The position numbers were made by a program, and so were the translations under genes. This document shows positions 1 to 8,863 of a DNA stretch of 64,000 nucleotides, in pieces. This DNA comes from an uncultured Candidatus Saccharibacteria bacterium. Its GTDB lineage: Bacteria > Patescibacteriota > Minisyncoccia > Phycocordibacterales > UBA1006. Position 1 is the first letter of the stretch. Each line of letters opens with the position of its first letter. The stretch is taken from positions 248,377 through 312,376 of the forward strand of contig CAYGJA010000001.1 in assembly GCA_964350165.1 (NCBI GenBank), read 5' to 3'. The notes under the pieces were generated by a model. It did not search any database, had not been told where the DNA came from, and saw nothing but the letters and a program-made list of their open reading frames with translations.

Positions 1-204
1 CAGATTGCTGACATCCTGCGTACACACTCGCTGACAATTGCCACCACAGTCTATTCCCCGCTCCAAGCCGTTCTGTTTGCCGTCAAAACACGTCGCCGGC
101 CGGGTAAAGTACCGATACGCTGTAATACCAATCAGTATCGTCGGCAGAATAGACAGGATACCGATATAGGTGAGTTTTCGCCGTTGTGACCAGGATAATG
201 CCAT
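1..204 (-). CDS. Hypothetical membrane protein, N-terminal part (gene runs off left edge)
   Basis: ATG at 204-202 on minus strand. Open frame to position 1 translates MALSWSQRRKLTYIGILSILPTILIGITAYRYF with one hydrophobic helix. Below the 60-aa ORF-track cutoff, found by manual translation. Confidence 0.3.
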   Translation of the reverse strand, partial: MALSWSQRRKLTYIGILSILPTILIGITAYRYFTRPATCFDGKQNGLERGIDCGGNCQRVCTQDVSNL

Positions 205-236
205 GGGTATATCATACCAGGATTTGTGCAGTGGTT

Positions 237-4922: not shown

Positions 4923-5030
<108 letters not shown>

Positions 5031-5096
5031 CAGATTACAAAGCTTTTTCGAGCTTGGAATATCAATATATTGTTTATGAGTTTCAAAAAACACCTA

Positions 5097-5111: not shown

Positions 5112-5357
5112 GAAAGAAAATGCTTAATGGTGTATATGATGTCCAGAGTTCCTAACTGGACAATGGGCAATTAGTACTTCTCCGCTCAACACATTACTGT
5201 GCTTACACGTAAAGCCTATCAACCTGATCATCTCTCAGGGCCCTAGGATTACTAATCTTAAAGTTGGCTTCCCTCTTAGATGCCTTCAGAGGTTATCCAT
5301 TCCCGACATAGCTACCCGACGGTGCCGCTGGCGCGACAGCCGGTAGACCAGAGGTCA

Positions 5358-5390
<33 letters not shown>

Positions 5391-5440
5391 CTTTTCAATA
5401 ATCGACGCCTGCAGTAGATAGGAGACCAACCTGTCTTACG

Positions 5441-5756
5441 CATGTGTAGCAATTAGTTGTTTAAAACTAATCACACCGCCATTACTGGCGGGATCGGACT
5501 GTATCTTTATTCGCAAAATGCGAATAGTTAACGTGCAGTCTCTACGGGCTTATATTTCTATAATTCCCTCGGTATTGCCCGCACGAATGCTAGGGTTCTA
5601 CCGATATGAGTTAACTTTTTCTTTCTAGACGAATCTAGAAGACCGCCGTAATTGGTTGGTTCTATCATTTTTCATTTTTGTTAAGACGAAAAGACTATGT
5701 CGTTTTTTTAGGATTCAGATTGGTTCATACTCCAATTCGTAAAAATTAGAATATGA
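5441..5756 (-). other. 316-nt ORF-less insertion in 23S domain V with group-I-intron-like boundaries (U before 5' splice site, terminal G)
   Basis: Flanks GGGTTCAGACCGT | insertion | CGTAAGACAGGTTGG reconstitute the conserved GGGUUUAGAACGU-CGUGAGACAGUU block (E. coli about 2590s). No ORF of 60 aa or more inside. Confidence 0.6.
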
Positions 5757-6418
5757 ACGGTCTGAACCCAGCTCGCGTACCCTTTTAATTGGCGAACAGC
5801 CAAACCCTTGGGACCTTCTCCAGCCCCAGGATAGGATGAGCCGACATCGAGGTGCCGAACATCGCCGTCGCTGTGGACGCTCGGGCGATACTAGCCTGTT
5901 ATCCCCGGGGTAGCTTTTGTCCTATGATCTTCTGCCGCATCTAAAGCGGTCAGTCGGTTCACTATGCTCTGCTTTCGCACCTGTTCGTCATGTCCGACTC
6001 ACAGTCAAGCTGGTTTATGCCATTACACTATCGGCACGGTTTCCATTCGCGCCTAACCAACCTTAGTAGGATCCTCCGTTACTTTTTGGGAGGAGAGCGC
6101 CCCACTCAAACTACCCACCACACACTGTCCCTCCTGGTTTTTGCCCAAGGGGTTAGAACATACATAACATGAGGGTGGTATTTCACTGGCGACTCCAGTG
6201 CAGCCAAAACCGCACCTTCAAAGTCTCCCACCTATGCTGCGCACAGGTCACGTATGCTCAATGTGAAGCTATAGTAAAGCTCCCGGGGTCTTTTCGTCTA
6301 ACTGCAGGTAACCGGCATCTTTACCGGTATTGCATTTTCACCGAGCAGGTCCTCGAGACAGTTCCCCAGTCGTTACGCCATTCGTGCACGTCTGAACTTA
6401 CCAGACAAGGAATTTCGC

Positions 6419-6614
6419 TCATGTATTCCTTTTAAATGCTCGACATGGACTCTATCTTATCCCTCCTTTGCAGGTAGGGCCGTGACGTTGGTCTCTATAT
6501 CATCACGTTTGGACTATGCTTACATTACTGTAAGTAAGGTAACTTGCGTATTCTATTTATCTACTTCTATAACAGTCCCAGTCCTACTGATTTCTAGTTT
6601 GCACTAAAAATCAG
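6419..6614 (-). other. 196-nt ORF-less insertion in 23S domain IV between CCTAAGGT and AGCGAAATTCC (L1917-L1923 intron-site region)
   Basis: Conserved UAAGGUAGCGAAAUUCC block is interrupted. Insertion begins ACTGATTTTTAGTGCAAACTAGAAATCAG (hairpin) and ends ...AATACATG (G terminus). AT-rich, no ORF. Confidence 0.5.
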
Positions 6615-6650
<36 letters not shown>

Positions 6651-7462
6651 CAGGGCTTATACAGATCAGCAAAACAAATAAATTTATTTCACCCTCCAGT
6701 ATTTAACCTTCTGGCATTGGTCAGGCGTCACCCCCTATACATCCTCTTTCGAGTTCGCAGGGAGCTGTGTTTTTGATAAACAGTCGCCAGGGAATCTTTC
6801 GCTGCGGCCCACATTGCTGTGGGCAGGCCTTATCCCGAAGTTACGGCCGCTTTTTTGCCGAGTTCCTTGAGGACCTCTCACTCGTTCGCCTTGGTCTACT
6901 CGACCTGACTACCTGTGTCGGTTTACGGTACAGGTTCCATATGTTTAACCTTAGAAGTTTTTCTCGAAAGGCTCTTCACATACCTCTCCCGGTCCGAAGA
7001 CCGGAATTGCTTGTATCCTCTCTGTTTGCCCGAGGGCCACTACCCGGATTTACCTAAGTAGCACAGATCGAATCCACGACACCAATCCGATAAGATGCGT
7101 ATGCTTATTTCCTTTGTCACTCCATCGAAACATAGGGAAGTTACGGAATATTAACCGTATGTCCATCGCCTGCGGTTCTCACCATCGGCTTAGGCCCTGA
7201 CTAACCCACGGTCGATCAACGTTGCCGTGGAACCCTTAGTCTTTCGGCGGGAGGGGATCTCACCCTCCTTGCGGTTACTTGTGCCAACATTCTTACTTCT
7301 ACACGCTCCACTATGGCTCACGCCTTTAGCTTCATCGCAGAGTAGAATACTCTCCTACCACTCGTATACGAATATACGAATCCTCAACTTCGGTACAATA
7401 CTTAAGCCCCGATTATTTGCGGCGCAGAATCTCTAGACCAGTGAGCTGTTACGCTATCTTTA

Positions 7463-7493
<31 letters not shown>

Positions 7494-8062
7494 TTGTCGG
7501 AGAAATTCTACCTCCTTAAGTGCACTGAGTATTGTTTAGGGACCTTAGTTTGAGATCTGGGCTGTTTCCCTTTTGTCCACGTGACCTTCGCGCCCCGGGA
7601 CTGACTGCCACGCTATTAACCGACTGGTATTCGGAGTTTGGTAAGTTTGGCGAGCCGAAGCCCTACTCAAACTATCCAGTGCTCTACCCCCAGCGGGAAC
7701 ACGTGACGCTATACCTAAATATATTTCGGAGAGAACCAGCTATTACCAAGTTCGATTGGCTTTTCACCCCTTACCACAAGTCATCCCCGCGTTTTGCACG
7801 GCGCGTGGGTTCGGGCCTCCATCTGTGTTTCCACAAACTTCACCCTGCTCATGGCAAGCTCACTTGGTTTCGGGTCGTATGCATGCTACATATTCGCGCT
7901 ATTCACACTCGGTTTCCCTGGGGCTCCGTCCGAAAAGGACTTAGCCAAGCAACATACATACACTCGTTGGCTCATTCTTCAATAGGCACGCCGTAGAGGA
8001 TGCAAGCACCCTCATCGACTCCTTGTAGACACACGGTTTCAGTTCTATTTCACTCCCCTTCC

Positions 8063-8108
<46 letters not shown>

Positions 8109-8863
8109 TGATGAAATATTTAGCCTTACCAGTTAGTACTGGCAGATTCCTCCAAGCTATTCATGTCTCGGAGTACTCAGGAACAGTAGTCAAGAAGGCG
8201 TGAGATTTTCGATTACGGGACTTTCACCCCCTTTGGTTAGGCTTTCCAGCCGTATTCATCTAACCTCACACTTTGTAACTTCTCGGGTAAACCCTACTAC
8301 TGCCCTACAACCCCACATCTCTTTACCGAAGTAAACAGACATGGTTTGGGCTTCTTCCGTTTCGCTCGCCGCTACTCAGGAAATAACATTTGTTTTCTTT
8401 TCCTCTAGGTACTGAGATGTTTCACTTCCCTAGGTAAACTCTTTTGGTCTCTTATGTACCAAAAGTGACTGTGGTTTACACAGCCGGGTTGCCCCATTCG
8501 GAAATTTCCGGATCAAAGCTCGATTATCAGCTCCCCGAAACTTATCGCAGATAGTCCACGTCCTTCATCGCTTTCATCAGCCAAGGCATCCACCGTGCGC
8601 CCTTGGACTCCAATTAGGAGATCCAAACATCAAGTAACACCGCATTTTGTTTTCATTGTGAGAAAACTCGATGTTCTTTGAAAAGACTCACACTTGGCAC
8701 ATACATATATATGTATGTGCCAAATATATTGATATTCAGCTATCAAAGGTCTCGACCTGTTTGCATTAAAAAATCGCCACTTGAGGCGATGCGGAGAACA
8801 ACCAAGGTTGGTCACTGCATCACGTAAGTCTCAAAGTCGAATTGATACGCATAAGGTGGTTGG

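Follow-up and report, generated by a model that had tools for sequence, protein, structure and literature searches.

An ORF-less group I intron at L2593 in the 23S rRNA gene of a probable CPR bacterium and a putative second exon-binding segment in its P1 loop

The interrupted 23S rRNA gene and its host

The window, i.e. the whole 64-kb stretch of DNA analysed here, contains a complete bacterial 23S rRNA gene on the minus strand (5151..8616; Rfam LSU_rRNA_bacteria, full model 1–2925, 2401 bits) followed downstream, on the same strand, by a 5S rRNA gene (4927..5034; Rfam). At 3466 nt the 23S gene is long compared with the 2925 positions of the model. Neither a 16S rRNA gene nor a tRNA gene was found in the 64-kb window by the Rfam scan at gathering thresholds and ARAGORN, indicating that the rRNA genes are unlinked here.

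The Rfam LSU alignment placed an insertion of ~320 nt in the gene, with both flanks aligned at high posterior probability, and a MAFFT alignment with the E. coli 23S gene (L001) resolved it as one clean 316-nt gap at 5756..5441. The E. coli annotation used carries an extra 5' base and runs +1 relative to the standard numbering (Um2552 falls at 2553 and psi1911 at 1912), and the insertion thus lies between standard U2593 and C2594, i.e. at L2593 within the helix 93 stem. The minus-strand junctions read ...GAGCUGGGUUCAGACCGU / UCAUAU...(316 nt)...CACAUG / CGUAAGACAGGUUGG..., so that ligation would join ...CAGACCGU to CGUAAGACAG. The last base of the 5' exon is U and that of the insert is G. The G+C content of the insert is 37%, versus 50% in the 23S exons and 44.5% in the window, and its sequence is strongly structured (MFE -84.7 kcal/mol, z = -5.65; 0/100 shuffles fold as well). 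No ORF of more than 36 aa occurs in the insert, the longest being exactly of that length. A preliminary description of this DNA had noted an AT-rich 316-nt split of a conserved 23S block, flanked by an exon-final U, ending in G, free of any homing endonuclease ORF and located at the LSU intron cluster that includes the I-CreI-family sites. Every element of this account was borne out, and alignment to a reference 23S gene returned the same coordinates, with L2593 as the exact site.

Two further departures from the E. coli gene were seen. A second insertion, which the preliminary description had not mentioned, is 196 nt long (6420..6615, minus strand), lies exactly after E. coli U1931 (L1931) and also ends in G. 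It gave only a faint match to Intron_gpI (17.3 bits, E=0.055), and homologous inserts of 208–297 nt occur in about seven to eight other Patescibacteria loci, all of which begin with a hairpin at nt 1 and continue with A(A)GGACUGGGACUGUUAUA. Neither a convincing core nor a U·G guide could be assigned in the L1931 insert, where U-1 would face A in ACCUUA; for a group I intron, a length of 196 nt would be very small. Finally, ~60 bases more than in E. coli were present near 23S position 277 (about 8277..8339, minus strand), which the Rfam alignment resolves as two short helix extensions and not as an intron.

The gene located 1.8 kb upstream of the 23S gene encodes an alpha/beta-hydrolase-like protein of 637 aa, whose top-ranked named homologues belong to Minisyncoccia, the Patescibacteria group, Jacksonbacteria, Paceibacterota and Andersenbacteria, with some Bacillota ranking lower. 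The nearest relatives of the 316-nt insert, among the matches listed, also came from Patescibacteria MAGs. From these sequence affinities the host looks like a CPR/Patescibacteria bacterium, in agreement with the earlier mention of interrupted rRNA genes as a recognised CPR trait. The metagenome contigs encoding the closest homologues of the 637-aa protein (L122–L126) display the gene order of the window (L10, L7/L12, CBS protein, hydrolase and MS-channel protein), and all break within a few hundred bases of the expected 23S start, probably as a result of assembly failure at the rRNA gene.

A compact group I core with a distal guide

A permissive Rfam scan of 5380..5820 detected a match to Intron_gpI (RF00028) over the full model (1–253) at 5475..5726 (41.5 bits, E=2.5e-9). 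This score is below the Rfam gathering threshold of 50, and the match is accordingly absent from the gathering-threshold scan of the window. Group II and other RNA families gave chance-level matches only within 5380..5820 (snR46, miRNA precursors and a plastid group II fragment, all with E>4). The elements of the intron, the insertion site and the exon ends are given below; intron positions (nt) convert to window coordinates as 5757 minus the intron position.

5441..5756, minus strand: whole intron, 316 nt, from T5756 to G5441, after E. coli U2593 in 23S helix 93
5757..5762, minus strand: 5' exon nt -6 to -1, GACCGU, exon strand of P1, with the U-1 (5757)·G111 wobble; direct reading
5641..5651, minus strand: internal guide UUACG/GCGGUC, nt 106–116, pairing with both exon ends
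5436..5440, minus strand: 3' exon nt +1 to +5, CGUAA, exon strand of P10, pairing with UUACG
5623..5640, minus strand: P2 hairpin, nt 117–134, 7 bp, UUCG loop; 7/7 pairs with compensatory changes
5610..5615, minus strand: P3 5' strand GUUAAC, nt 142–147; 6/6 pairs compensatory, 96% of cells paired
5546..5604, minus strand: P4-P6 domain, nt 153–211, from alignment and pair counts
nt 153–157/184–188, minus strand: P4
nt 162–179, minus strand: P5 (162–164/177–179) and P5a with a UUCG loop
nt 189–211, minus strand: P6 (189–191/209–211) and P6a with a GAAA loop
5536..5540, minus strand: P7 5' strand GACUG, nt 217–221; 100% of cells paired
5527..5532, minus strand: P3 3' strand GUUAAC, nt 225–230
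5509..5525, minus strand: P8 hairpin, nt 232–248; 6/6 pairs with compensatory changes
5497..5508, minus strand: J8/7 AAAGAUA and P7 3' strand CAGUC (256–260), together nt 249–260
5476..5491, minus strand: P9 hairpin, nt 266–281, loop AGUAAU; 99% of cells paired, 4/5 pairs compensatory
5441..5475, minus strand: 3' tail, nt 282–316, terminal G316 = 5441
within the 3' tail, minus strand: possible P9.0 (282–285/311–314) and P9.1 hairpin (286–305), weakly supported

In the guide, GCGGUC pairs with the 5' exon GACCGU as P1, with the U-1·G111 wobble at the 5' splice site, and the contiguous UUACG pairs with the 3' exon CGUAA as P10. The guide is complementary to the ligated junction at 11/11 positions with no gap, a fit that was equalled in 5/5000 intron shuffles. 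The guide is preceded by 105 nt of intron instead of lying close to the 5' end, a point absent from the preliminary description. The 5' strand of P7 is immediately preceded by the invariant J6/7 GUAGA, and only 3 nt (CAC) separate P7 from P3', leaving no P7.1/P7.2. The P2 loop is UUCG here versus GNAA in most relatives and, as it is not GNRA, one tertiary contact may be missing. P9.0 and P9.1 remain unsupported because few relatives have either helix. With a P1 containing the U·G pair, P10, a P3-P8 core with the P3/P7 pseudoknot, J8/7 and J6/7, and a terminal G, the insert is confirmed as a group I intron in the Michel-Westhof sense.

Relatives were collected from one genome per species as loci in which the exon junction is followed by any base except C (at least 120 loci). 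Two kinds of L2593 intron were apparent among the matches listed: class A introns start with AAAUUACAUUGCGUUC or AGAUCACACUGCGUCC, have their guide at ~nt 6 and are flanked by exons with GAACGU, and class B introns, which include the 316-nt intron, have GACCGU exons and the guide NYACG/GCGG(UC). Scanning metagenomes for the exon variant with U at -8 yielded another 20 class B introns, giving 72 distinct class B sequences among the matches listed, with nearly all of the named sources in these matches being MAGs labelled Patescibacteria, Parcubacteria, Paceibacterota, Saccharibacteria and similar. Class B introns range from 213 to 1034 nt in length (median 342, n=72), and their guide starts 52 to 299 nt into the intron (median 110, n=72). 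The terminal G is present in 72/72 members and the GCGG of the guide in 71/72; the guide ends in UC, giving a P1 of 6 bp, in 35/72, and reads GCGGC-N, giving a P1 of 4 bp, in 34/72.

The part from the guide to the 3' end was aligned for 34 ORF-less class B members (alignment A1), and the pairs of a hand-drawn P2-P10 structure were counted. Standard pairs occupied 88.6% of cells, compared with 35–41% when the 3' partners were slid by 1–3 columns, and a compensatory change affecting both sides was seen in 44/64 pairs; 0/500 shuffles reached any of the five measures. Most or all pairs of P2, P3, P5, P6, P8 and P9 were compensatory in this alignment. The fraction of paired cells was 96% in P3, 97.6% in P4, 100% in P7 and 79% in P8, with compensatory changes in each, P7 for example switching from GACUA/UAGUC to GACUG/CAGUC in 12 sequences. 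P10 covaries as well: an A at exon +4 (A2597) faces a guide U in 7/7 cases, and a G at this position faces C in 60, U in 3 and A in 2 of 65. The motifs UCGG, CCGAG, UAGAGAC and GUCC, together with ACGGCG of the guide, were invariant across the 34 members and are all kept in the 316-nt intron. The suggestion made from the letters alone, that the insert is a group I intron, is thus upheld by the full-length Intron_gpI match, the guide and a fold that covaries in 34 relatives; the covariance-model search named at the time as a possible refutation, should it find no intron core, found a full-length one at 41.5 bits.

Splicing of the 316-nt intron, alone or with help, is what we infer from these sequence features, and it is very probable that the insert is an ORF-less group I intron at L2593 removed from the pre-rRNA by the standard two-step reaction. 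Removal would restore helix 93, with the internal guide (nt 106–116) aligning both exons: GCGGUC, through P1 and its U·G pair, would position the 5' exon, and UUACG, through P10, the 3' exon. In the compact core (P3-P9, with no P7.1/P7.2 and no P5abc) the P3/P7 pseudoknot would serve as the binding site first of the guanosine cofactor and then of G316.

The sub-threshold Intron_gpI score, the loss of an endonuclease or maturase gene, the non-GNRA loop of P2 and the low identity to the nearest sampled relatives (only about 70–75% in the core) would also suit a decayed group I relic incapable of self-splicing, which would either be retained in the rRNA or depend fully on a host or trans-acting factor. 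However, the 316-nt intron agrees with the family alignment at all invariant columns, P1 and P10 are perfect and all core helices are intact. Moreover, a 316-nt insert that could not be removed from helix 93 would probably be lethal, CPR genomes usually carrying a single 23S gene according to the accessible text of Tsurumaki et al. (2024; PMC11270868). We regard such a relic as very improbable.

Most class B introns have no room for an endonuclease ORF, 56/72 being of 480 nt or less, and 9/72 are of at least 650 nt. Three members of ~680–715 nt (L028, L055 and L102) contain an ORF of about 150–180 aa, and L195, L197 and L231 are similar by length. In the former three, the ORF starts in the P4'/P6 region and ends just before UAGAGAC, i.e. 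it occupies the P6 loop. The encoded proteins are single-motif LAGLIDADG_1 proteins (45–54 bits) that match I-CreI over their full length (E about 1e-20) and also I-MsoI, the classic enzymes of the L2593 site; the earlier assignment of the insertion to an I-CreI-family site is strengthened accordingly. The 316-nt intron does not encode the LAGLIDADG endonuclease that characterizes I-CreI-type homing introns, and at the position of the relatives' ORF it has a 5-bp P6a with a GAAA loop. This short P6a in place of the ORF indicates that the gene is absent and not decayed in situ. Given that a few relatives still carry the gene in P6, the 316-nt intron appears to be derived from a homing intron of the I-CreI type by loss of the endonuclease gene.

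Unusual insertions and deletions occur in CPR rRNAs, and the small expansion near position 277 in this very gene could be cited in favour of the 316 nt being a lineage-specific expansion segment kept in the mature ribosome. Against this stand the group I fold and the guide, as well as the length range of the family (213–1034 nt), its hypervariable periphery and the occasional endonuclease gene, all of which fit a mobile intron and not an rRNA domain, so that an expansion segment is hardly credible.

Two sequences, L031 from the genome set and L146 from the metagenome set, share the class B core consensus and have their guide within the first ~15 nt and two P7.1/P7.2-like hairpins between P7 and P3'. 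Their architecture makes class B look derived, and suggests that P7.1/P7.2 were lost and that the long P1-loop domain was a later acquisition.

Pairing of the P1-loop domain with the 5' exon

The 105 nt that precede the guide form, together with the upstream part of the 5' exon, the following elements.

5725..5756, minus strand: hairpin starting at intron nt 1, nt 1–32, 14 bp, loop UUAC; from RNA folding
5711..5719, minus strand: L1 exon-binding motif UCUGAAUCC, nt 38–46, complementary to exon -13 to -5
5761..5769, minus strand: 5' exon nt -13 to -5, GGGUUCAGA, the partner of UCUGAAUCC
5652..5710, minus strand: rest of the L1 domain, nt 47–105, A-rich, with the motifs UUUCGUCU and GAUAGAACCAA

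The hairpin at nt 1 is kept across class B as a pairing, its sequence being unrelated between members. It is followed by a conserved AC (nt 33–34 in the 316-nt intron, occasionally GC in other class B members), which can pair with exon G-2 U-1, and, 1–3 bases further on, by the exon-binding motif, the family form of which is UCUGAAYCC and which is conserved in all 72 class B members. When the exon and L1 region were folded together with RNAfold, almost every one of the 32 members folded had the exon on the L1 motif. Covariation was assessed at exon position -8, the motif being picked in each sequence according to Watson-Crick matches at the eight positions other than the tested column (scoring G·U as a full pair instead led to U-rich hairpin strands being picked and to meaningless counts). 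The motif has G opposite exon C-8 in 47/48 cases and A opposite exon U-8 in 23/24; the two exceptions (L042 and L231) are mis-picks in the nt-1 hairpin, and both fit once the motif is placed correctly. At least seven independent switches of the exon -8 state were counted on a rough NJ tree of 67 cores. The remaining variation of the motif is compatible with wobble pairing (UUUGAA, UCUGAG, and Y opposite G-11). From these comparisons we conclude that the helix with exon -13 to -5 is a selected RNA pairing. Further shared motifs are visible in the L1 domain (UUUCGUYU, GAUAGAACCAAUCA and, in some members, CUGUUAUA), from which no supported fold could be derived for nt 47–105.

The nt-1 hairpin with AC-N-UCUGAAUCC has the usual topology of a P1, and was considered as the catalytic P1 and rejected in this role, given that U-1 would pair with A and not G, that the sequence forming P10 does not lie next to it, and that UUACG/GCGGUC matches both exons with covariation. 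We keep it as an auxiliary or alternative helix.

Exon, hairpin and motif together make up a helix of ~25 bp across the 5' junction, which would be the processing stem if the insert were an intervening sequence (IVS) that RNase III or another nuclease of the host excises, the 23S rRNA being left in unligated pieces. According to the accessible text of PMC11270868, IVSs that fragment the rRNA are known from the 23S genes of bacteria and suspected in CPR. However, there is no comparable stem at the 3' junction, and RNase III-type IVSs are by definition devoid of a ribozyme core, whereas this insert has a complete, covarying group I core, a guide that aligns both exons, a P10 that covaries and a terminal G that is invariant among its relatives (72/72). 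The known 23S IVS sites are in helices 9, 25 and 45, and helix 93, beside the peptidyl transferase centre, is not known to be one of them. An IVS is therefore a very improbable reading. Even when the decayed relic and the expansion segment are counted with it, the alternatives to a spliced group I intron amount to a small chance, all three being contradicted by the guide, the terminal G that never varies and the intact core with its covariation.

Within a spliced group I intron, the most economical reading of the exon -13 to -5 helix would be that of a 5'-exon clamp. Such a clamp would form first during transcription, before the guide exists, and would prevent the 5' exon from mispairing within domain V and retain it through both steps of the reaction. 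Alternatively, the helix could be part of an extended guide for reverse splicing, or an inhibitory alternative to P1. The exon -13 to -5 helix and the hairpin/AC helix compete with P1 for exon nt -6, -5, -2 and -1, a competition at the 5' splice site that could slow splicing and not help it. A 6-bp P1 shares two bases with the clamp, a 4-bp P1 (34/72 members) none; P1 and clamp together are formally a pseudoknot.

We tentatively propose, as a possibility about which considerable doubt is in order, that class B L2593 introns recognize their 5' exon in two parts, i.e. by the distal GCGG(UC), which pairs with exon -4/-6 to -1, and by the P1-loop segment UCUGAAYCC just after the nt-1 hairpin, which pairs with exon -13 to -5. 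Such two-part recognition could clamp the exon co-transcriptionally, or it could constitute an extended guide (13 + 5 nt) for reverse splicing, which would give ORF-less copies a high specificity for intron-less 23S rRNA.

Significance and comparison with known introns

On the present reading the 23S gene should be annotated as three exons, with introns at L1931 and L2593, and the gene would exceed the mature rRNA by about 512 nt. Any primer, rRNA classifier or rRNA-depletion probe spanning L1931 or L2593 will fail. The locus is a further example of the tolerance of CPR for numerous rRNA introns, the majority of which no longer have their endonuclease gene.

This tolerance is well documented. 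According to the accessible text of Tsurumaki et al. (2024; PMC11270868), 82% of 348 surveyed CPR 23S genes have insertions, in line with the preliminary description, which had called interrupted rRNA genes a CPR trait. The same text reports 433 insertions in CPR 23S genes that match the Rfam group I model, 222 of them ORF-less, with recurrent sites including 1917, 1931, 1952, 2593, 2604 and 2657; it credits the first notice of CPR introns to Brown et al. (2015), whom it also cites for the removal of the insertions from transcripts. The insert described here is, at 316 nt, above the 100-bp minimum for such a CPR 23S insertion and lies at E. coli position 2593, and it has its host group, gene, site and element class in common with the ORF-less 2593 introns of that survey, which were found by the Rfam model and tabulated; nothing essential differs as far as the accessible text goes, and the 316-nt intron is thus one more instance of a kind catalogued in 2024. 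In the accessible text of PMC11270868 we found no description of secondary structure, of a distal guide or of a pairing with exon -13 to -5, and none of the 5' module was found in the literature searched on P1 extensions, internal guide sequences and CPR introns, the coverage of which was incomplete.

The element is therefore ordinary for its host group, and only the 5' module (the nt-1 hairpin, the exon -13 to -5 pairing and the distal guide), which is family-wide, goes beyond the known picture. If two-part recognition is true, it would be a structural variant of group I introns for which no description was found in the literature searched. If functional, the 5' module would illustrate the way in which a minimal ribozyme keeps hold of its 5' exon within a large rRNA that is folding, and could inform the design of trans-splicing or circularizing group I ribozymes.

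The Chlamydomonas chloroplast intron Cr.LSU, home of I-CreI, is an L2593 intron with an I-CreI-family LAGLIDADG gene. Cyanobacterial L2593 introns, from Synechococcus and Thermosynechococcus, likewise contain an endonuclease gene and have a ~65-nt extension of P7 (P7.1/P7.2), by which subgroup IA-type L2593 introns are recognized (Haugen et al., 2007, PMC1995217). The 316-nt intron shares its insertion site with the cyanobacterial and Chlamydomonas introns, and the core consensus CUCAUAUCGG..CCGAGGG..CCCGUAGAGACU..AUAGUCC is common to class B and to the P7.1/P7.2-bearing L031 and L146. It differs from these endonuclease-bearing L2593 introns in having no endonuclease gene, and from the cyanobacterial ones in having no P7.1/P7.2, with just the CAC trinucleotide between P7 and P3', so that it does not fall within the IA-type as so recognized. 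Its guide is located 105 nt from the 5' splice site, compared with the first ~15 nt in L2593 introns of the P7.1/P7.2 type.

The tRNA introns of Azoarcus and Anabaena are small bacterial group I introns that interrupt the anticodon loop of a tRNA and whose P1 loop is short. The 316-nt intron resembles them in its minimal core of ~200 nt (P2-P9), short P5, tetraloop-capped peripheral hairpins and absence of an ORF, but it lies in an rRNA gene and has a 105-nt L1 domain with a second exon-binding segment. The extended guides of engineered trans-splicing group I ribozymes, which are artificial 5'-terminal extensions, likewise pair beyond a 6-bp P1, there for binding and specificity, as described in the accessible text of PMC3895272. 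In contrast to those engineered guides, the segment found in class B introns is a natural part of the P1 loop of a putatively cis-splicing intron, and it pairs upstream of P1.
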